NCBI GenBank assembly: GCA_036495905.1
Contig: DASXMB010000054.1
Span: 529-64,528, forward strand
Length of the DNA: 64,000 nt
Direction of reading: 5' to 3'
DNA from: Candidatus Acidiferrum sp.
Lineage (GTDB): Bacteria > Acidobacteriota > Terriglobia > Acidiferrales > UBA7541
The notes under the pieces were generated by a model. That model was not told where the DNA came from and ran no database searches. It was given only the letters and a program-made list of their open reading frames with translations. Positions 9,408 through 20,672 of the stretch are shown piece by piece (within the stretch, counting starts at the first letter, position 1; every line of letters starts with the position of its first letter). The position numbers and the translations under genes were made by a program.

Positions 9408-10427
9408 CTAATTCTCGGTTTGCGCCGCTTGTGCAGCCTCGCTGGCCGCCATCGGATACCACCGGTGGAACACATAAAAAAATAACAGGATCACTGCGAA
9501 ATCAAACACCCCGGCTTCCGGCCCGGCCGTCCCGCCCGTTATCCACGCTGGCCCTGCAACCACCGCACTCGAAAGATGCCCCGGGAAAATCGTTCCGCTA
9601 TCCGGCACGGAGTAAAGAAACGTCTCCCCAAAATCGAAGCTGGCGTGCATGCCCACTGCAAACCACAAACTTTTGGTGCGCTGCAGCGTAAAACACCAGA
9701 ACAATCCGCTAAGCACCACGCTCGCCAGTCCCGGCCAGGTTTCCCCGGGATTCATCGCGTGCCGCAAACCAAAAACCAAAGACAACACAATCGCCGCCGC
9801 CCAAAACCCGATTCCCTGCGCCGCCGTGAACTGCACATAGCCGCGAAACGCAAACTCCTCGTAAAATCCCACCAAAAGCAATACCGCAGCCCAGAACAAC
9901 AGCCATCCCACCAACTCGCGGCCGTGCAGAATCACCGTCCCCAATTTGTACGCCCCGCAAGCGGCCATTGCCGCCACCACCGCGCTGATCTCCACCAAAC
10001 CAAACGCCGCGCCTTGCCAGAATAATTTGCCGAAAGCGCCTTTCCACGGCAGCCCATACTCGCCGAACTGCCGCTTCTCCAGAAACGCCATGATCCGCGC
10101 CGAGCCAAACGCTCCCGCCACCGCCGCAATTTCAGACAATCCCTGTTGCTGTGGCAAACCTAAGGTGGGAAATGGCGGCAGCACCAATCGCGCCAGCAAA
10201 ATAACCGCATAACCAAGCACATCCGCAAATACCAAATAGATGCAAACCCGCACAAAAATAAACGGCAACCCCGGATTACGAAAAAATCCCGGCCCCCCCG
10301 CGGAAGGAACCGACACACCTTCCGGCCCCGCCGCCGAAACACTCTGGCTCTCTGTCGGCGACATATTCTGGGGCTCCGCCGCCGAAATCAATCCCGCCTT
10401 CGTTTCTTCCGCCTGCTTATCTGCCAA
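9408..10427 (-). CDS. CPBP-family intramembrane glutamic endopeptidase (CAAX protease-like)
   Basis: Polytopic membrane ORF carrying the CPBP motifs EEFAFRGY, FGLRHAMN and HASFD. The exact start is uncertain. Confidence 0.8.
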   Translation of the reverse strand: MADKQAEETKAGLISAAEPQNMSPTESQSVSAAGPEGVSVPSAGGPGFFRNPGLPFIFVRVCIYLVFADVLGYAVILLARLVLPPFPTLGLPQQQGLSEIAAVAGAFGSARIMAFLEKRQFGEYGLPWKGAFGKLFWQGAAFGLVEISAVVAAMAACGAYKLGTVILHGRELVGWLLFWAAVLLLVGFYEEFAFRGYVQFTAAQGIGFWAAAIVLSLVFGLRHAMNPGETWPGLASVVLSGLFWCFTLQRTKSLWFAVGMHASFDFGETFLYSVPDSGTIFPGHLSSAVVAGPAWITGGTAGPEAGVFDFAVILLFFYVFHRWYPMAASEAAQAAQTEN

Positions 10428-12520: not shown

Positions 12521-15454
12521 ATGCCATCGCCGTCACAACTGAGTCCGGATAACATACTGCGCTTTCTGCAAGTTAGGCCGGAACCCGCTTCCGCCGTGGA
12601 CATTGCCGAAGCGCTGCACCTCGGCAAATCGGAGCGCCGCCCGCTTTTTCGCATGCTTGCCAAGTTGAAAAAACGCGGCGCCTTGCAGGAACTGCCCGGC
12701 GGGCGCTACCGCCTCGGCGGCCGCAAAGAAAAAAGCAAAGCCGGAGCCGCGCTCCGCGAGGAAAAACAATATATCGGCCAAACCGACCGCGAAAATCGCA
12801 ATCGTGGCGATCGGCCGAACGAAAATCGCAGCCGGGAAGGAGATCGAAATCGCCAAGACGACGGCGGCCCCGGCCAGCGCAGCAGCAACGATCGCGGCGG
12901 CAACGACCGTAGCGGAGAGCAGCGCGGGCAGAAACGCGGCGAACAAAATCGAGGCGAGCAAAATCGGGGCGAACAAAATCGGGGTGACCGGCGGGAACCT
13001 TCGCGCGAAGCGTCGCAACGGGAATTTTCGCAGCGAGAAAGCGGACGCGGTGGATCGCCGCAAGGAAGCAAAAATTTTCGCGACGCGGGCCAGCGCAATC
13101 AAGGCCGCGAAATGCCGGCCCGAGACCGGCGCACCGGCAATTTGCGCCACGAAAAAGAGAGCGGCGGAAATTCCGGCGCGGTAGCGCGAGGCCGCGACGA
13201 AATTACCGGCCGCCTGGTTTTGCACCACGACGGCTACGGCTTCGTGGTTCCCGATACGCCGATGCCACAAATCGAGCGTGACATCTTTATTCCGCGCGAT
13301 TCCGTGGAAGACGCCATGCACGGCGATCACGTGCTGGTAAAAATTGGCCGCGTCAGCGGACTGGTTGGAGAAAAACGCGCCGAAGGCCGCATCGTTCGCG
13401 TTCTGAATCGCGCGCATCCCACCGTGGTCGGATTATTTCGCTACGGGCCGCGCGCCAACATCGTCCTTCCGTACGACGCGCGCATGCAATACGAAGTGCA
13501 CATTCCGCCTGGCGAAGAGTTGACGCCGGAATTGTGGAAAAAACTTGGGCTCGATGCGCGCAGCATTCAGGGCCAGCGCATTCCGCAAATGGAAGAGCTG
13601 AATGGCGCGGTGGTCGACGTCGAATTAATTCGCTATCCGCGCGGCGGCGCTTCGCCCACCGGACGCGTGATCGAAATTCTCGGGCGCCCCGGCGATCTCG
13701 GCGTGGATATCGAGATCATGATCCGCAAGCATCACTTGCCGCACGTTTTTTCGCCGGAAGTGCTGCAGGAAGCGGAACGCCGCGCCCGTCCAGTGACGGA
13801 AGCGGAGCGCGCCAAGCGCGAAGATTTTCGCAACTTGCCGATTGTTACCATCGACGGCGAAACCGCGCGCGATTTTGACGACGCCGTATACGTCGAACGG
13901 CGAGCGGATGGCGGCTGGAATTTGCAGGTGCACATCGCGGACGTATCGCACTATGTGCGCACCGGAACGGAATTGGACGGCGAGGCGCGCTTGCGCGGCA
14001 CTTCGGTTTATTTTCCAGATCGCGCCGTACCCATGCTTCCGGAGAGTTTGTCGAATGGAATGTGCTCGCTGAAACCCCGCGAAGAGCGATTGGTGATGAG
14101 CGCGCTGATGGAATTCGATTCCGCCGGAAATATGCGCGGCTCGCGAATGACCTCCGGCGTAATTCGTTCCGCGGAGCGCATGACTTACACCGATGTGAAC
14201 AAAGTTCTGGAAGGCGATTCCGAAGCGAGCGCGAAATACGCGGAACTGGCGCCGCGTTTTCGAGACATGAAAGAGCTGGCCCTGCTGCTGAATGCGCGGC
14301 GCGGCGAACACGGTTCGATTGATTTCGATTTGCCGGAACGCGTGATCGAATTTGACGAACAGCAGCGCATGATCAATATCGGCCGCAGCGAAAGAAATAT
14401 CGCGCACCGGCTGATTGAGGAATTCATGCTGGCGGCGAATCGCGCGGTGGCCGGCTATTTGTTGCAGCGCGGATTCGCTTCGCTGCATCGCGTGCATGAA
14501 AAACCGGACGCCAAGAAAGTTTTGGATTTTGAAGAAATGGCGCGCGCGTTTGGCTATTCCCTGGGCGTGGAGAATTTGCATCAACGAGAAATTGCGGTGC
14601 GGCACGGGCGCGTGCCTTCGCCGGCAAAAGCGGGTCGCCCGGATTCGCGCGGCTATGGACGCGAACGCGAAATGAAAGTAGCGCTGCCGGGAACCACCGA
14701 ACTGCGCATTACGCCGCAGCATTATCAAAGATTGGTGCGCAAGCTCGCCGGCAAACCGGAAGAGCGCATCGTTTCTTACTTGATGCTGCGCTCGCTGAAA
14801 CAAGCGCGCTATGCCGCCGATCCGCTGGGACATTTTGCTTTGGGTTTTGAAGAGTACACGCATTTCACTTCGCCGATCCGGCGCTATCCGGATCTGGTGG
14901 TTCACCGCATTTTGAAATGGGCGCTGGAACATCCGCAAGAATCGGCGCCCAAGGGCAGCGTGGCGGAGCCAGGCGGCGAAGCTACCGTGTATTCGTACAA
15001 ACAGCTGGAAGAAATCGCCACGGAAACTTCCGAAGCGGAACGCCGCGCCGCCGGCGCCGAGCGCGAATTGATGGACTGGAAGACGGCGCAATTCATGGAA
15101 GAACATTTGGGCGAAGAGTACGACGGGCTGATTATTTCCGTGCAGAAGTGGGGTTGCTTCGTCGAACTATTCGAGATTTTTGTTGAAGGGCTTTTGCCGA
15201 TTCAGGCGCTGGAAGACGCGGCGAATGCGCGCTGCATCTATCGCGAAAAAGAGCACGTGATTGTGGCGCTACAAAATTCGGATGGCCGCCGCGGAAGTTC
15301 GGGAGGTCGGCGCGGGCGCGGCGCAAAGGTGCAAGAGCTTACCTGGCAGCTCGGCGATCGCGTGAGGGTGCGCGCGGAGCGCATCGATCCGATGCGACGG
15401 CGCGTGGAATTCGCGCTAGTGGATGGAATGGGCGACGTGCGCGAAGTAAGCTGA
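12521..15454 (+). CDS. rnr: Ribonuclease R, with a long low-complexity insertion after the N-terminal winged-helix domain
   Basis: 977-aa ORF with an N-terminal HTH-like segment, cold-shock-like domains, an RNB catalytic core (IDGETARDFDDAVYVE...HIADVSHYV...YFPDRAVPMLPE) and a C-terminal S1 domain (GLIISVQKWGCFVELF). Confidence 0.9.
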   Translation: MPSPSQLSPDNILRFLQVRPEPASAVDIAEALHLGKSERRPLFRMLAKLKKRGALQELPGGRYRLGGRKEKSKAGAALREEKQYIGQTDRENRNRGDRPNENRSREGDRNRQDDGGPGQRSSNDRGGNDRSGEQRGQKRGEQNRGEQNRGEQNRGDRREPSREASQREFSQRESGRGGSPQGSKNFRDAGQRNQGREMPARDRRTGNLRHEKESGGNSGAVARGRDEITGRLVLHHDGYGFVVPDTPMPQIERDIFIPRDSVEDAMHGDHVLVKIGRVSGLVGEKRAEGRIVRVLNRAHPTVVGLFRYGPRANIVLPYDARMQYEVHIPPGEELTPELWKKLGLDARSIQGQRIPQMEELNGAVVDVELIRYPRGGASPTGRVIEILGRPGDLGVDIEIMIRKHHLPHVFSPEVLQEAERRARPVTEAERAKREDFRNLPIVTIDGETARDFDDAVYVERRADGGWNLQVHIADVSHYVRTGTELDGEARLRGTSVYFPDRAVPMLPESLSNGMCSLKPREERLVMSALMEFDSAGNMRGSRMTSGVIRSAERMTYTDVNKVLEGDSEASAKYAELAPRFRDMKELALLLNARRGEHGSIDFDLPERVIEFDEQQRMINIGRSERNIAHRLIEEFMLAANRAVAGYLLQRGFASLHRVHEKPDAKKVLDFEEMARAFGYSLGVENLHQREIAVRHGRVPSPAKAGRPDSRGYGREREMKVALPGTTELRITPQHYQRLVRKLAGKPEERIVSYLMLRSLKQARYAADPLGHFALGFEEYTHFTSPIRRYPDLVVHRILKWALEHPQESAPKGSVAEPGGEATVYSYKQLEEIATETSEAERRAAGAERELMDWKTAQFMEEHLGEEYDGLIISVQKWGCFVELFEIFVEGLLPIQALEDAANARCIYREKEHVIVALQNSDGRRGSSGGRRGRGAKVQELTWQLGDRVRVRAERIDPMRRRVEFALVDGMGDVREVS
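12938..12985 (+). repeat. 15-nt tandem repeat, 3 units, inside rnr
   Basis: GAACAAAATCGAGGC / GAGCAAAATCGGGGC / GAACAAAATCGGGGT, encoding (EQNRG)x3. Confidence 0.7.
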
Positions 15455-15601: not shown

Positions 15602-16156
15602 TTAACGGCTGGCGCTGAGCGAGAGACGCAAAGAACTAAGCATGCGGCGGCCAGGACGGGTTGCGATGGCCGCGAATCGCGCCAGCGGCAACCACGCATT
15701 ACTGTAAAGCGAAAGGAGCGCAATCAGTTTTGCGAAAGCCATTCGCCGCGGCGACTGGAAATCGATGCGCCGGCCTCCGCGATACAGCCGGACCATGCGG
15801 CCAAGCAAATGGCGCGAGGCGATAAATCCATCGGCATCGGCGCAGGCATCGCCTTTAACAAATAATTTCGCGGACTCTTGCGAGCCATGCGTAGCGACAA
15901 TGCGATGCACGATGGTGCGATTTTCAGCGCGAAACAAAACCACGTCGCCGCGTTCCACTGAATTCAGCTCGGCGCGTTTCACCACCACGATGTCGCCAGG
16001 GCGCAGCCACGGCAACATGCTGTTGCCGCGCACGCGCAGCGAAATGCGTCCGCGCTCCGCAAGCGCCGCGGCAATGCGAGTGGCGTCGCCAGAGCGGCGC
16101 TCTCCATCAAAGCGGTGCGGTTTAGGCAAATGCGCGTAAGTAGTGTCAGAAGCCAT
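15602..16156 (-). CDS. S24/S26-family (signal-peptidase-I-like) serine peptidase, candidate leader peptidase of the RiPP-like island
   Basis: 184-aa ORF with LRVRGNSMLPWLRPGDIVVVKR...VHRIV...VKGD, the Ser/Lys dyad context of S24/S26 peptidases, and a hydrophobic C-terminal segment. Confidence 0.7.
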   Translation of the reverse strand: MASDTTYAHLPKPHRFDGERRSGDATRIAAALAERGRISLRVRGNSMLPWLRPGDIVVVKRAELNSVERGDVVLFRAENRTIVHRIVATHGSQESAKLFVKGDACADADGFIASRHLLGRMVRLYRGGRRIDFQSPRRMAFAKLIALLSLYSNAWLPLARFAAIATRPGRRMLSSLRLSLSASR

Positions 16157-16717
16157 TAGCAGTGTTCGGGGACAGTGTTCAGGTCACCGAAAGTTTTGAA
16201 AAATTTGTCCTGTCGCAGACGGTCGCAGAGCTGTCAATTTTGCGCGGCGATCACGTAGCAGCACACGGGAAACGTTCCAACTTGGTGCTTGTCGGCCAAG
16301 AATGCGCCACAACGGAACGTCAAAATGTGCTGGAACTAGGTTGATGTTTCAGAACGGAATGGTCAATGAACCTAATGTTTCATTTTGCTCAAAGGCACAC
16401 GGGGGAAAGACTGTACGTTGTGGCGAGGGGTTAGGAGTAGTTTTGCGGCGGGAAGTGGCCAAGTTGAGATCCTTCGGCCCGCAAAACCAGCGGCCCTCCC
16501 TACGCTTCGCCCAGGGCGAGCAGGATGACATCTTGGGCGTTGGGCGGCTGGACGCTGCGGCGAAAGCCCAGGAGTGCCGAAAGGCTGGAATCGCGGCGGA
16601 CCACTGAAAAAGTTGGGTATTGCGGCGAAAAGTCGCGAAGCTGCGGAGAGCGGAAATTGCGCGGAAGCCCTAGGTTGCGACGCAAGCCTGGAACTTGCGG
16701 GGCCCGCCAGATCGGGG

Positions 16718-16888
16718 CTAGGAACGGCGGACGGCTTGGCTGCAGGCGGCGCCTTGGCCAGGGAGTTTTCCACAGGCCAGGGCTAGAGTCTCGTAAATAG
16801 GCTCAGAAATGACGCTGGGCTTGGCGTAGGGCTTCTTATTGCCCTCCATGCCCTGCTTTTCGGTCGATTTCGGTCGATCTTCAGCCAT
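16718..16888 (-). CDS. Unannotated 56-aa candidate RiPP precursor peptide
   Basis: My own translation of the minus strand: MAEDRPKSTEKQGMEGNKKPYAKPSVISEPIYETLALACGKLPGQGAACSQAVRRS*. An AGGAA Shine-Dalgarno sits 6 nt before the ATG at 16888. The ORF starts 39 nt downstream of the rSAM stop on the same strand. It is below the 60-aa cutoff of the ORF track. Confidence 0.55.
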   Translation of the reverse strand: MAEDRPKSTEKQGMEGNKKPYAKPSVISEPIYETLALACGKLPGQGAACSQAVRRS

Positions 16889-16927: not shown

Positions 16928-18142
16928 TTAGTGCAACCTCAATGATGACACAGAATTGGGTGCTGTGTCTGGACGTGTTGCGTTTATGGCACTAGCGGCC
17001 CGCTGGGCGTGCAGGGCGCTAATAGGACTGGCGATGCCAGCCATACGGGCTTTTTGCTCGGCCAGGTCGCAAGCTCGGTCGTAAGCACCGGTAATGTCGC
17101 CGCCTTCCATCAGGGCGAGGCCGGGGCAGCGTTCACAGTAGGCGCGAATGTCGCACGTGGAACATACCGGCAACTGGCTTTCGCGGATGGCGCGAAGTTT
17201 TTCCAGCTGTGGGGAGCCGTACCAAATGTCCTTAAAACGGTTGTTGCGCAGGTTGCCAGCGGCCTGGGGAAGCTGGACGCAGGGGAACACGTCGCCATAA
17301 GGGGAAATATAGCAACTGTTGTGGCCGGCGCTGCACATCATGTCTTCGTAGGCGCCGCTTTCGATGCCGCTGGAAACGGAGCTGCCGAGGGTGGGGAGAG
17401 GCGCTGCGGCGGAACCGAGATTTTCGGATTGCGCAGGCGGCTGGGGATGGCAGGAGCTCAGCGAAGAATCCTGCATGATTGGCAAAAGCTGTTCGGCGGA
17501 AGCGCGGTAGTCCAGAGTGCTGCTGCTGCCGTCCATCATCGGAGTGATGGTTAAGTCCAAAATGTAGGGAATGCCAAGTTTTTCCGCGAGGGCCATTACG
17601 CCGCGATAGGCGAGCAAATTTTGTTTCATCAGTGGGCAGGCGAGTTTCACCTGCAAACCTTGTTCGATGAGGAGAGGAATTGCGTCGAGGGTGCGTTGCA
17701 GCGAGCCGGGAACTTTGGTGATGGCATCGTGGATGGCGGGATCGTCGCTGTAGACGCTGATCTGAACGCGGCGCACGCCGAGTTCGCGAAGGCGAACGGC
17801 GCGTTCGCGAGTGACCATAAGAGCGTTGGTTTTCAGGCTGATGTCAAAATGCAGGCGGCGAGCGCCGGCAAGAATTTCAAAAAGATCGGGCCGTAGAAAA
17901 ATTTCTCCGCCACTGAAAGTAAGGAAAAGCGTGCCGGCGGCGGCGAGTTGATCGAGGACGGCGAGACATTCGGCGGTGGTGAATTCGCCGTGATCGTCGT
18001 GATCGAGATAGCAATGAACACAGCGTTCGTTGCAGCGATAGGTGAGATCGAAATGCACGCTGACCGGACGGCGTTTGTTGGTGGTTCGCGAAATGAAGCG
18101 ATCCATCAGCGGCGTGGGATTAATTTGGGCGGAAGCGCTCAC
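16928..18142 (-). CDS. Radical SAM enzyme with a C-terminal SPASM domain
   Basis: CX3CX2C motif CNERCVHC near the N-terminus. The C-terminal auxiliary-cluster motifs CSAGHNSCYISPYGDVFPC and CSTCDIRAYCERC fit the SPASM pattern. A GTG at 18142 overlaps the PqqD stop (GTGA). The alternative start is the ATG at 18106. The track ORF extends to 18250. Confidence 0.85.
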   Translation of the reverse strand: MSASAQINPTPLMDRFISRTTNKRRPVSVHFDLTYRCNERCVHCYLDHDDHGEFTTAECLAVLDQLAAAGTLFLTFSGGEIFLRPDLFEILAGARRLHFDISLKTNALMVTRERAVRLRELGVRRVQISVYSDDPAIHDAITKVPGSLQRTLDAIPLLIEQGLQVKLACPLMKQNLLAYRGVMALAEKLGIPYILDLTITPMMDGSSSTLDYRASAEQLLPIMQDSSLSSCHPQPPAQSENLGSAAAPLPTLGSSVSSGIESGAYEDMMCSAGHNSCYISPYGDVFPCVQLPQAAGNLRNNRFKDIWYGSPQLEKLRAIRESQLPVCSTCDIRAYCERCPGLALMEGGDITGAYDRACDLAEQKARMAGIASPISALHAQRAASAINATRPDTAPNSVSSLRLH

Positions 18143-18435
18143 CGAGAAATCCCTTCCGCGGATGCGGGAATGACGAGTTTTTTGGAAGACAATTCCTGCA
18201 AGAGATTTTGCGTGTCGGCAAGAGCGATGGGCTCGGCAACTTCGTAACAAGCGGCCAGCAAGGCGGCGAGATCGGAAGCGGAACGACGGCCGTCGATATT
18301 TTCCCAGATGAAAGTGCCGGTGTCGTTGAGTTCGTGCATGACGCTTTCGGCGGGAGAAATGATCACGGTTTCGCCATCGATTTCTCGCCAGGCGAGAGCG
18401 GGGTTTTTCTGCCAGAGCGCGGAAATTTCACTCAT
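18139..18435 (-). CDS. PqqD-family protein (RiPP recognition element / peptide chaperone)
   Basis: 98-aa ORF ...WREIDGETVIISPAESVMHELNDTGTFIWENIDGRRSASDLAALLAACYEV..., the typical PqqD/RRE pattern. Its ATG overlaps the upstream stop (ATGA at 18432-18435). Confidence 0.8.
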   Translation of the reverse strand: MSEISALWQKNPALAWREIDGETVIISPAESVMHELNDTGTFIWENIDGRRSASDLAALLAACYEVAEPIALADTQNLLQELSSKKLVIPASAEGISR

Positions 18436-19259
18436 GCGGGAAGCGCCTCCCAGAAAGTAGCGTCTCTGCGGAAATCCAGGGTATAGCCGGAAATTTGCTG
18501 GACGGCTTGGCCGAGAATCTCCAACAGGCGCTGGTTAGCGGCGAGGTCGCTGGAAAAAAACAAAATGTTGGGCAAGAGAATGCGGAGAAATTCCATGGGA
18601 TGCAGCGAAGCAACTTGATTCGTGGCCGATTGCAGCAGGCGAAAAATTCCAGCGACAGGAGCGCTGACGTTGGATCCAGCAGCGCGGAATTCTCCCCAAA
18701 AGGGAGTGCCGTAGGCGCGCCAGACGCCGTCTTCAAAACGCAGCAGAGAAATTTCGTCGGTGAGGACGGAGCCGGCTGGGGCGAGAGACGCTACGGTGCT
18801 TTTTCCGGCACCGGAACGGCCAGTAAAAACGAAAGCGCGACCATTGCGAACCACGGTGGCGGCATGCAACAAGAAACCGGTGTGCGGCAGCAACCGCCAA
18901 CTAAGGAACATGCGGAGCAGGCCGTCCAATGCGTATTCATTGCCGACGCCGGCGAAAGAGGATTCGGAGGCAAAGATTTTGAGCACGGCGTTTCCGAAGG
19001 TGCAAGAAAATTCGGGGTCGCTATTGGAAGCGGCGACAGAGTCGTTGCAAGAAATGGTGAAGGGATGAGCGTGGCTGGCGGTGAAGGCGCTATAACGCGC
19101 GGACGCGGCGGCGCGGAGCGGCTCTTCCGGGATGCGCAGACGGAGCGGCAGGCAACCGATGGAGACATCAAACTGGTGCTGAGGCGTGCGCCCCAGCGTG
19201 GCTTGCGGTGCGGTCAAAAAACTCCTTGGCCGATTCAACCGGCAAAAAAATGGCAACAC
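18432..19259 (-). CDS. HPr-kinase-like P-loop protein (HprK-related, RiPP-associated kinase type)
   Basis: LLHAATVVRNGRAFVFTGRSGAGKSTVASL, i.e. Walker A G-x-SG-x-GKS in the HprK C-terminal-domain context. The start is uncertain: either the GTG at 19259 or the TTG at 19217, which is preceded by AGGAG. Confidence 0.75.
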   Translation of the reverse strand: MLPFFCRLNRPRSFLTAPQATLGRTPQHQFDVSIGCLPLRLRIPEEPLRAAASARYSAFTASHAHPFTISCNDSVAASNSDPEFSCTFGNAVLKIFASESSFAGVGNEYALDGLLRMFLSWRLLPHTGFLLHAATVVRNGRAFVFTGRSGAGKSTVASLAPAGSVLTDEISLLRFEDGVWRAYGTPFWGEFRAAGSNVSAPVAGIFRLLQSATNQVASLHPMEFLRILLPNILFFSSDLAANQRLLEILGQAVQQISGYTLDFRRDATFWEALPA

Positions 19260-19580
19260 GCGGCGGGGAGGCTGCGACGCGCTGAGCCTAAAGGTATGTA
19301 TCTACTTTCCGGCGACGAGAGGGTGCGCGTCAAGGCCAGATGATACGTGATGGCGCAAAAGAGGAATACCTGTCCTCCAGTACGGTACGTAGCGTGGTGG
19401 ATACGGTCGGCGATTCGCGATGCGGCGGGTGCGGTCCAAATCGGCTGTTTTGCAAAGGGTTGCGATGGGGCATTCTTCAGAGGCCAGGATGGTTCTGTTA
19501 TTCTTGAAGCAGAGTGAAAATGTTTTGTGCTCGATAGGGAAAGGAATGCAATCGTGAAAACTTCAGCGAGTGCCAGTGCC

Positions 19581-20672
19581 ATGGGAAAGCGCGTATTCAA
19601 TTTTAATGCGGGTCCGGGAGCGCTGCCGCTGCCGGTGCTGGAACGCATTCGCGAAGAGTTGCTGGACTGGCAGGGCAGCGGAATGTCGGTGATGGAGATG
19701 AGCCACCGGTCGCCGGAATTCGAGGGAATTTTGGCACGCGCGGAAGCCGGGCTGCGGAAGCATTTGAGCATTCCGGACGAGTACGCGGTGTTGTTCTTGC
19801 AGGGCGGCGGAAGCATGCAATTTACGATGGCGCCGATGAATTTGTGTTTGCCGGGAAAGCCGGTGGATGTGTTGCATACAGGAACATGGACGGCGAAGGC
19901 GCTGGGCGAATTGAAGAAGGGGATTTTGCATAACGTGGCGGCGTCGACCGAGGCAGAAAAGTTTCGCCGCGTGCCACGCAAGGAAGAGATCAAACTTTCG
20001 GCGGATGCGTCGTATGTGCACATGTGCACGAACAATACGATTGAAGGGACGCAGTGGCACACGATGCCGGATAGCGGAGCGGCGCCACTGGTGGCGGACA
20101 TGTCTTCGGATATTGCATCGCGCCCGGTGGACGTGAAGAAATTCGGACTGATTTTTGCAGGCGCGCAGAAAAACCTGGGGCCGAGCGGAGCTACCGTGGT
20201 GATTTTGCGGAAGGAACTGGCGGAGCGGGCGGACAAAAATTTGCCGACGCTGCTCCAATATCGAACCCATGTGAAGGAGCATTCGCTGTATCACACGCCG
20301 CCGACGTTTGCGATTTACATTATTGGGTTGGTGATGGAGTGGATCGATGCGGAAGGCGGGATTGCGGGAATAGAAAAAACGAATGTGGCGAAGGCGAAGT
20401 TGCTTTACGACTCGATTGATGGAAGTGGATTTTATTCGTGTCCGGTGGAGAAGGAATCGCGGTCACGAATGAACGTGGTTTTTCGCGTGGCAGGCGGGGA
20501 TGAGGCGAAAGAAAAGAAATTTGGGGAGCAGGCTGCGGCAGCGGGATTGGTTGGCACGCCGGGACACCGATCGGTGGGCGGGATGAGAGTATCGTTGTAT
20601 AACGCGGTGACGCCGGGGGCGGTGGAGAGTTTGGTGGGATTTATGAAGGAGTTTCAGCGGGTTGAGGGGTAG
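19581..20672 (+). CDS. serC: Phosphoserine aminotransferase SerC
   Basis: MGKRVFNFNAGPGALPLPVLERIREELLDWQGSGMSVMEMSHRSPEF... and ...GAQKNLGPSG.... The ATG at 19581 is preferred. A GTG at 19554 with a better RBS is also possible. Confidence 0.9.
   Translation: MGKRVFNFNAGPGALPLPVLERIREELLDWQGSGMSVMEMSHRSPEFEGILARAEAGLRKHLSIPDEYAVLFLQGGGSMQFTMAPMNLCLPGKPVDVLHTGTWTAKALGELKKGILHNVAASTEAEKFRRVPRKEEIKLSADASYVHMCTNNTIEGTQWHTMPDSGAAPLVADMSSDIASRPVDVKKFGLIFAGAQKNLGPSGATVVILRKELAERADKNLPTLLQYRTHVKEHSLYHTPPTFAIYIIGLVMEWIDAEGGIAGIEKTNVAKAKLLYDSIDGSGFYSCPVEKESRSRMNVVFRVAGGDEAKEKKFGEQAAAAGLVGTPGHRSVGGMRVSLYNAVTPGAVESLVGFMKEFQRVEG

Follow-up and report, generated by a model that had tools for sequence, protein, structure and literature searches.

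A conserved 56-codon open reading frame beside ScmC, PqqD and radical SAM/SPASM genes in Acidobacteriota is a probable precursor of a modified peptide

A 64,000-nucleotide (nt) stretch of Candidatus Acidiferrum sp. (contig DASXMB010000054.1, positions 529 to 64,528 of the forward strand; hereafter the window) carries on its minus strand a compact cassette of four enzyme genes and, among them, a 56-codon open reading frame (ORF) running from ATG to TAG. Its translation, MAEDRPKSTEKQGMEGNKKPYAKPSVISEPIYETLALACGKLPGQGAACSQAVRRS, agrees exactly with that given in an earlier note on this DNA, which had proposed that the ORF encodes a translated precursor for the neighbouring maturase genes. The cassette consists of genes for an ScmC-family P-loop protein, a PqqD-family peptide chaperone, a radical S-adenosylmethionine (rSAM)/SPASM enzyme and an S24/S26B serine peptidase (Table 1), and is flanked by serC and the RNase R gene rnr. 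The ScmC, PqqD and rSAM genes follow one another with consecutive 4-nt overlaps, which suggests that they are translationally coupled. As the earlier note had it, the ORF lies on the same strand as all of the cassette genes, begins 39 nt after the rSAM ORF, which including its stop ends at 16928, and is preceded by a Shine-Dalgarno-like AGGAA; the two Cys residues (C39 and C49), the lack of Asp or Glu past T34 and the terminal Ser can likewise be read directly from the sequence. We propose that the ORF very probably encodes the precursor of a ribosomally synthesised and post-translationally modified peptide (RiPP), processed by the adjacent ScmC/PqqD/rSAM-SPASM/S24-S26B cassette.

Table 1. Coordinates of the candidate precursor gene, its parts and its neighbours in the window. 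pN/pS, ratio of non-synonymous to synonymous change; RRE, RiPP recognition element; aa, amino acids.
Feature	Position	Strand	Remarks
56-codon ORF, candidate precursor gene	16718..16888	-	ATG to TAG
Codons 1-18	16835..16888	-	variable Lys/Glu-rich leader part; pN/pS 0.62 (weak constraint); contains the tandem repeat
Codons 19-38	16775..16834	-	conserved leader/recognition block KPYAKPSVISEPIYETLALA; pN/pS 0.18
Codons 39-56	16721..16774	-	putative 18-residue core CGKLPGQGAACSQAVRRS, scaffold C-G-K-x7-C-x6-S-COOH; pN/pS 0.21
Shine-Dalgarno-like AGGAA	16895..16899	-	6 nt upstream of the peptide ATG (16888), from sequence
Overlapping 133-aa frame	16372..16773		rejected as the real gene
561-nt non-coding gap	16157..16717		position of two extra genes in ~50 relatives
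Inverted repeat	16440..16487
Direct repeat	16440..16466 and 16617..16643
ScmC-family P-loop protein	18432..19259	-	distantly HprK/PEPCK-like, putative peptide kinase; 275 aa from a GTG start
PqqD-family peptide chaperone (RRE)	18139..18435	-	98 aa; Pfam PqqD E=5.3e-18, 65.6 bits against a cut-off of 23.4
Radical SAM/SPASM enzyme	16928..18142	-	404 aa (JGI call); Pfam Radical_SAM E=1.5e-21, SPASM E=1.3e-11
S24/S26B (SipW/Sec11-type) serine peptidase	15602..16156	-	184 aa; putative leader peptidase, from profile matches and SEC11A alignment
serC	19527..20672	+
rnr (RNase R)	12521..15454	+
Rce1-like CPBP intramembrane protease	9408..10427	-	PF02517 in the JGI annotation

The surrounding 14 kb of this GC-rich DNA hold 126 ORFs of at least 40 aa. 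The size of a 56-codon frame is therefore not significant in itself, and its status as a gene needed comparative evidence. Calculated for the final 38 codons, pN/pS comes to 0.225 in the peptide frame, as against 1.68 and 1.96 in the two other frames, so that purifying selection is seen in the peptide frame only, and variability among the homologues is far higher at third codon positions (0.43) than at positions 1 and 2 (0.14 and 0.09). The first of the regional pN/pS values in Table 1 was calculated over codons 2-18. Essentially every one of the 60 homologous gene copies has a purine-rich element (GGGGA, GGAGA or AGGAG) ahead of its ATG, and the length of 56 codons is conserved. The overlapping 133-aa frame, which the earlier note had named as a possible real gene, has no homologues (0 tblastn matches in 70 loci, and no Pfam or NCBIfam family match) and is ruled out. 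Taken together, the homologues, the conservation of the locus, the frame-specific selection and the Shine-Dalgarno-like motif argue that the frame did not arise by chance, and indicate that it is a real small gene under purifying selection, very probably a translated one. The description of this ORF as 'hidden' holds in part: the JGI gene caller already has the exact 56-aa product as a 'hypothetical protein'. No NCBI source for the exact sequence is listed in the protein collection searched. A perfect 10-nt tandem repeat noted earlier does exist, but the position then given (16861-16880) is off by 2-3 nt; it lies at 16858-16877 in the register of the tool used, or at 16859-16878 if ATCGACCGAA x2 is read from the coding strand. 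The repeat falls in the N-terminal part of the gene, where conservation is lowest, has no counterpart in homologues and is irrelevant to the precursor reading.

The peptide has many relatives. A search with the single sequence returned 226 proteins of ~56 aa and 59-77% identity. A profile of 33 close homologues recovered 426 representatives at 50% identity from 1.84 billion proteins, and a profile of diverse members recovered 5,951 clusters at 90% identity. The 226 proteins and the 5,951 clusters are all unnamed or 'hypothetical'. No Pfam or NCBIfam model matched the peptide family, and no description of this cassette or of the peptide motifs was found in the literature. Almost certainly the gene encodes the substrate of the adjacent enzymes; it is one member of a large group of modified-peptide precursors from soil bacteria, for which we could find neither a database model nor a description. 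As a precursor family this group appears to be new to the literature, and its combination of partner enzymes is unusual.

Conservation was assessed in 317 unique sequences selected for the same 36-residue length from Y21 to the C-terminus. Y21, P24, C39 and K41 are invariant in this set, and K23, E29, E33, T34, A36, L37, G40 and C49 are at least 95% conserved. The residues that the earlier note had singled out thus prove to be conserved ones: in its Y-x-x-P-x-V motif Y21 and P24 are invariant and the residue at Y+5 is hydrophobic, T34 is present in 308/317, C49 accompanies the invariant C39 in 315/317, and the C-terminal residue is Ser in 314/317 and Thr in the other 3. Position 26, Val in the window peptide, is Cys in 48/317, including all 44 sequences from Acidiferrales loci used in the pN/pS analysis, and otherwise Phe or Val; position 38 is Ala or Ser in 94%. 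The block encoded by codons 19-38 contains a YxKPxΦ motif (Φ, hydrophobic), E29, Y32-E33-T34 and A36-L37-A38. Past this block, positions 42-48 and 50-55 vary between the conserved C39, K41, C49 and S56, and Asp or Glu is almost never found at positions 39-56. The spacing of the two Cys is 10 in distant members of the family as well as in the 317 sequences. From C39 to the end there are 18 residues in 74 of 76 distant members and 17 in the other 2 (in the 317 sequences this length is fixed by their selection). The N-terminal part varies in sequence and length across the family. A conserved leader motif combined with variable residues on a fixed core scaffold is the pattern expected of a RiPP precursor.

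Association with the enzymes was examined from both sides, and loci are referred to below by L numbers. A search with the window rSAM protein against one genome per species gave 67 close loci from uncultured Acidobacteriota (Acidiferrales/'Acidoferrum'-type metagenome-assembled genomes, MAGs), and profile searches of their six-frame translations found the peptide in 57. It lies within ~250 nt downstream of the rSAM gene in 56 of these, and in nearly all of the 57 at ~80-250 nt from the rSAM stop; in the last (L003) it lies ~3 kb downstream, after two extra genes. Starting instead from a distant peptide subfamily (32-49% identical to the window peptide) in metagenomes, we obtained 80 loci, which were typed with the window proteins and those of L072, many on contigs shorter than 2 kb. 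An S24 gene was found in 63 of them, ScmC in 47, PqqD in 36 and rSAM in 35, with ABC-2 exporter genes (7) and PF14907 genes (14) as minority neighbours. Of the 11 loci that extend 3.5 kb or more to either side, 9 have the complete enzyme set. In 51 of the 61 loci with at least 500 nt downstream, the S24 gene is the next after the peptide gene, often overlapping it. A tblastn search of plasmids with a distant peptide gave no match.

Two gene orders were observed across these loci and L072, ScmC-PqqD-rSAM-peptide-S24, as in the window, and peptide-S24-ScmC-PqqD-rSAM. That the partners stay the same although their order has changed argues strongly for a functional unit, and the peptide is thus genomically coupled to four enzyme families (S24/S26B, ScmC, PqqD and rSAM/SPASM) over two gene orders. 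A small conserved ORF beside PqqD and maturase genes across genomes is again what a RiPP precursor should look like. The earlier note had staked its proposal on three points, namely conserved counterparts beside homologous gene sets, a coding-type substitution pattern and the status of the 133-aa frame, and on all three the outcome supports a translated precursor for the neighbouring maturase genes.

ScmC, PqqD and S24/S26 genes also occur together without an rSAM gene, on Butyrivibrio fibrisolvens plasmid pNP243 (L159, 5599-7622) and in Prevotella sp. F0039 (L160, 5569-7213). Part of the pNP243 set is a Cys-rich peptide of 57 aa, MKKAYVKPELKAS...GRIW, which shares the leader motif. Only in rSAM-containing cassettes is the block [F/Y]32-E-T-x-A-L-x-C-G-K found, and the Butyrivibrio peptide keeps only the KKAYVKPEL part; this restriction makes the block, together with the two Cys, the likely site of the rSAM chemistry. 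Genes for a nucleotidyltransferase, a GT2 glycosyltransferase and an ABC transporter lie near the rSAM-less sets.

The window cassette is a reduced version of that in its relatives, lacking a nucleotidyltransferase gene and two genes for secreted proteins. In ~50 Acidiferrales relatives (for example L005, 7348-10340) the space between peptide and peptidase genes, which in the window is the 561-nt gap, holds genes for a secreted protein of 764 aa, which combines a DNRLRE/CBM96 domain with a PQQ-like (BamB-type) beta-propeller, and for a lipoprotein of ~190 aa. A tblastn search of the window with both proteins found no remnant of either. The gap itself gave no Rfam match and no significant promoter or terminator-like site, and its folding energy is no better than that of shuffled sequence (z = +1.5). 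It holds an inverted repeat with 16-nt arms (81% complementary), a 16-nt loop and no T-tract, as well as a 27-nt direct repeat (78% identical) downstream of the peptide gene. L001 resembles the window in having neither the propeller nor the lipoprotein gene, and since the compact arrangement is present in two independent assemblies it is not an assembly artefact. Five relatives (L006, L010, L014, L037 and L063) carry a tandem duplication of the peptide-propeller-lipoprotein module, with almost identical peptide copies. Upstream of ScmC, most Acidiferrales relatives have a gene for a PF14907 'uncharacterised nucleotidyltransferase' (L043, 3583-4788, E=2e-57, and ~55 other loci), which is absent from the clade of the window (the window, L001, L002, L005, L057 and L062). 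Distant peptides, too, can have large secreted propeller-like proteins as neighbours: one of 992 aa in L095 and an FG-GAP protein in L156.

The assignments of the four enzymes differ in firmness. The ScmC-family protein, of which NCBI has a 261-aa version starting at 19217, is also annotated in a Candidatus Acidoferrum MAG. Its precomputed Pfam match is PF27840 ScmC, at the superfamily level. Among NCBIfam hidden Markov models (HMMs) it matches HprK_rel_A (E=3.7e-9, 36 bits against a cut-off of 200), ScmC (E=4.1e-9, 36.2 bits against 125) and HprK_rel_B (E=5.5e-5), and there are weak PEPCK matches. Across 37 homologues neither the Walker A motif GRSGAGKST nor the acidic VLTDE downstream of it shows any change. 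The 'kinase' of the earlier note is a P-loop protein of the ScmC family whose HMM similarity to HprK-related kinases is weak. For the PqqD protein, the nearest NCBIfam models are the lasso, PQQ (pyrroloquinoline quinone), GeoRSP and ScmD types of PqqD, all scoring below cut-off (ScmD, 25.9 bits against 100). The rSAM translation shows CxxxCxxC and a C-terminal Cys-rich SPASM motif; its best relatives in the PDB are PqqE (6c8v, 1e-14), SkfB and SuiB, and its NCBIfam scores are 98.4 bits for PqqE (cut-off 381), 106.3 for MftC (265; a full-length match) and 97.7 for ScmE (400). The peptidase matches NCBIfam sigpep_I_arch (TIGR02228) at 52.3 bits, just above the cut-off of 51.85, as well as Pfam Peptidase_S24 and Peptidase_S26. 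In alignment with human SEC11A its Ser (GNSM), His (VHRIV) and Asp (KGDA) are in register; the HMM score and the Ser/His catalytic residues point to a peptidase of the S26B (Sec11/SipW) type. It has no N-terminal membrane anchor and shows a weak sod_Ni_protease match.

These observations can be assembled into a tentative pathway. PqqD-type RREs bind a YxxPxL motif in lasso peptide leaders. The window PqqD would likewise bind the leader block centred on Y21-x-K23-P24-x-V26, as the invariance of the motif and its spacing, identical to that of the lasso leaders, suggest. It would then present the peptide to the rSAM/SPASM enzyme, which would modify the fixed C-terminal part, C39-G-K-x7-C49-x6-S56. 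One or more Cys-derived thioether cross-links are the product we find most plausible, an assignment in which we place somewhat less than even confidence. With ATP, ScmC would modify a hydroxyl group; phosphorylation of the C-terminal Ser56 is the most plausible such reaction. The Ser/Thr-only C-terminus and the lasso peptide kinases PadeK and PsmK argue for this step, by analogy, and we regard the chances that ScmC acts in this way as evenly balanced. In lasso precursors, kinases of the HprK type place a phosphate on the C-terminal Ser, which is then decorated by an 'uncharacterised nucleotidyltransferase' (PMC6993621). In loci that, unlike the window, carry a PF14907 nucleotidyltransferase gene, the phosphate on the peptide may be decorated further in a similar way. 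Finally, the soluble Sec11/SipW-type peptidase could remove the leader at A36-L37-A38|C39 or at T34-L35-A36|L37, both sites being suggested by small residues at -3 and -1 (A36 and A38 before C39, T34 and A36 before L37). Cleavage after A38 would release the 18-mer CGKLPGQGAACSQAVRRS.

The cassette would thus work like an RRE-dependent rSAM/SPASM RiPP pathway that borrows the kinase/nucleotidyltransferase logic of phosphorylated lasso peptides. With the latter (paeninodin with PadeK; pseudomycoidin with PsmK and PsmN) it shares a discrete PqqD-type RRE, a Y-x-x-P-x-hydrophobic motif at the same spacing, a Ser end and an in-cluster P-loop protein with (weak) HprK-related HMM similarity, together with a nucleotidyltransferase and an ABC exporter in relatives. 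Unlike those clusters it has an rSAM/SPASM enzyme and an S26B-type peptidase. It is not a lasso peptide cluster: Pfam searches of 10 kb on each side and of the syntenic loci found no Asn-synthetase-like cyclase and no transglutaminase-like B2 protease, and the core offers no Asp or Glu acceptor, which a lasso core has at position 7-9, as the earlier note had concluded in excluding a lasso macrolactam.

The SynChlorMet cassette (ScmC, ScmD, ScmE and ScmF; TIGR04248-04251, PF27840) is similar in combining an ScmC-family protein with a PqqD homologue and a PqqE-like rSAM/SPASM enzyme. The window has one rSAM/SPASM gene rather than two, and the scores of its proteins against the ScmC, ScmD and ScmE equivalog models (36.2/125, 25.9/100 and 97.7/400 bits) place it outside that system; it also differs in its S24/S26B peptidase and its defined precursor. 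By the TIGRFAMs description, the SynChlorMet (SCM) precursor is not known to have been identified. PQQ (PqqA/D/E) and mycofactocin (MftA/B/C) biosynthesis offer a second parallel, with a small, highly conserved peptide, a PqqD-type chaperone and an rSAM/SPASM enzyme. Membership in either was rejected on the PqqE (98.4/381) and MftC (106.3/265) scores and on finding no PqqB/C/F or MftD/E/F genes nearby. Moreover, unlike PqqA and MftA, the window peptide has neither an E-x3-Y pair nor a C-terminal Val-Tyr, carrying two Cys and a terminal Ser instead.

With the sactipeptides and ranthipeptides (AlbA, SkfB, StsB, CteB and PapB-type enzymes) the cassette has in common an rSAM/SPASM maturase whose precursor contains conserved Cys residues and is recognised through an RRE. 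The model and structure matches of the rSAM protein include SkfB and StsB, and both an rSAM/SPASM maturase and a Cys-bearing core are present. It differs in that the RRE is a separate protein, in having only two Cys at a fixed 10-residue spacing and in its ScmC and S26B partners, and a thioether is here a presumed product. In the quinohaemoprotein amine dehydrogenase system (QhpC/QhpD/QhpE/QhpF) an rSAM/SPASM enzyme cross-links a Cys peptide, a dedicated serine protease cuts off the leader, and an ABC exporter and an adjacent propeller partner complete the set. The window system is laid out alike, with a small Cys peptide, an rSAM/SPASM enzyme, a serine protease and, in relatives, a propeller neighbour, a likeness of gene content; it lacks the haem subunit, the flavin monooxygenase and the propeller partner. 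Soluble S26 peptidases such as the nickel superoxide dismutase maturation protease SodX, as well as SipW and Sec11, are the closest parallels for the peptidase, given the catalytic residues in register with SEC11A and the small -3/-1 residues before C39. In contrast to the SipW/Sec11 signal peptidases, however, it has no N-terminal anchor and its presumed substrate has no hydrophobic signal-peptide core. A Sec signal or lipobox at LALAC was considered and rejected: residues 1-38 contain no uninterrupted hydrophobic run, two acidic residues, E29 and E33, stand no more than 10 positions from C39, and some relatives have V, Q or I immediately ahead of the Cys. We know of no S26B-type leader peptidase described for a RiPP.

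Several observations weigh against a precursor processed in this manner. Ten Acidiferrales loci (L043, L044, L047-L050, L052, L055, L056 and L061) carry nucleotidyltransferase-ScmC-PqqD-rSAM-S24 genes with no peptide, propeller or lipoprotein detected within 6 kb; an all-against-all comparison of their six-frame translations for other small ORFs was swamped by overlapping-frame noise. Conversely, the peptides of L111 and L120 are orphans, in 14-kb metagenome loci without any cassette enzyme. Precursor and enzymes can evidently be encoded apart, and their co-localisation is strong, not obligatory. For an antibiotic-type RiPP the putative core is unusually strongly conserved, and in ~13% of one subfamily C39 is preceded by V, Q, I or T, which fits the AxA rule poorly. 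The link between ScmC and kinases is weak, as it draws on weak HMM matches; sequence and profile searches of the PDB with ScmC gave only generic P-loop and weak PEPCK matches, and in an AlphaFold2 (AF2) model built from 37 homologues (pLDDT 51) the P-loop domain is disordered. Furthermore, the Butyrivibrio peptide ends in Trp and ScmC also adjoins family members ending in -SSA or -NT. The Trp-ending and -SSA peptides imply that ScmC may not be a C-terminal-Ser kinase.

Other roles for the peptide were weighed against the same data. Instead of a free natural product that is secreted, the mature peptide might be a cross-linked small subunit or a peptide-derived cofactor acting with a partner protein, as QhpC, PqqA or MftA do, the partner in most relatives being the secreted DNRLRE and PQQ-like propeller protein. 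The ~50 Acidiferrales loci with peptide, propeller and lipoprotein genes between rSAM and S24 speak for this, as do the five duplications of the whole module with almost identical peptide copies, the joint absence of peptide, propeller and lipoprotein from the ten loci above, and the propeller-like proteins beside distant peptides in L095 and L156. The strong purifying selection on the core and the chromosomal serC-rnr synteny would suit a housekeeping role, and PqqE is the best solved relative of the rSAM enzyme. However, in the window and in L001 the peptide and cassette are intact and conserved with the propeller and lipoprotein genes missing, and most of the 80 distant loci lack these two genes too. 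As in lasso clusters, ABC-2 exporters and PF14907 nucleotidyltransferases turn up repeatedly, if in a minority of loci, and the neighbourhood has no PqqB/C, MftD/E/F or QhpG-like genes for tailoring a redox cofactor. We therefore consider a subunit or cofactor role unlikely, if worth keeping in mind.

It is very improbable that the peptide is a real small protein that travels with the cassette as a regulator, immunity factor or scaffold and is no substrate of the enzymes. The ten enzyme sets without a peptide and the few peptides without enzymes would fit such a role, and modification of the peptide has so far been inferred, not observed. Against it stand a YxKPxΦ motif of the type bound by PqqD, a PqqD that is always part of the set, and the succession of a variable N-terminus, a conserved block and a fixed 18-residue Cys/Cys/Ser scaffold. 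The peptide gene also adjoins, and often overlaps, a leader-peptidase-like gene in 51 of 61 informative loci, and the Butyrivibrio set pairs a different Cys-rich peptide with the same leader motif, as expected of matched precursors and enzymes. A chance open frame, or the 133-aa frame as the real gene, can be dismissed as extremely improbable, since the abundance of short ORFs and the missing Pfam and NCBIfam matches are set against thousands of homologues, selection confined to one frame, a conserved Shine-Dalgarno-like motif, start and length, and a 133-aa frame with no match of its own.

We thus return to a RiPP precursor as the preferred reading. Its fullest form, to which we give slightly less than an even chance, would be a new RiPP class of ~6,000 sequences, mostly from soil and peat metagenomes: an rSAM-cross-linked, 18-residue C-x9-C-x6-S peptide whose C-terminal Ser is phosphorylated by an ScmC-family kinase, further decorated in many lineages, and which is released by a cytoplasmic Sec11/SipW-type peptidase. 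KKxYxKPxΦ peptides would then be the missing substrates of ScmC/PqqD cassettes generally, including SynChlorMet-type sets and the rSAM-less sets of Butyrivibrio and Prevotella. If true, this would give a concrete substrate to the widespread combination of ScmC, PqqD, rSAM/SPASM and S24/S26B, which has been named ('SynChlorMet-like') without a known function, and would enlarge the RiPP catalogue by a sizeable family of precursors from Acidobacteriota, which are poorly cultured. It would also bring two unusual steps, a Sec11-type leader peptidase and an HprK-like kinase outside lasso peptides. In relatives, the link with propeller proteins may point to a subunit or cofactor derived from the peptide.

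Two further features were noted around the cassette. The RNase R homologue has an N-terminal low-complexity extension of ~230 residues, rich in Arg, Glu, Gly and Asn and with repeated GEQNR units; the JGI call for this gene is shorter (744 aa). The Rce1-like CPBP intramembrane protease gene lies ~5 kb from the cassette (Table 1).

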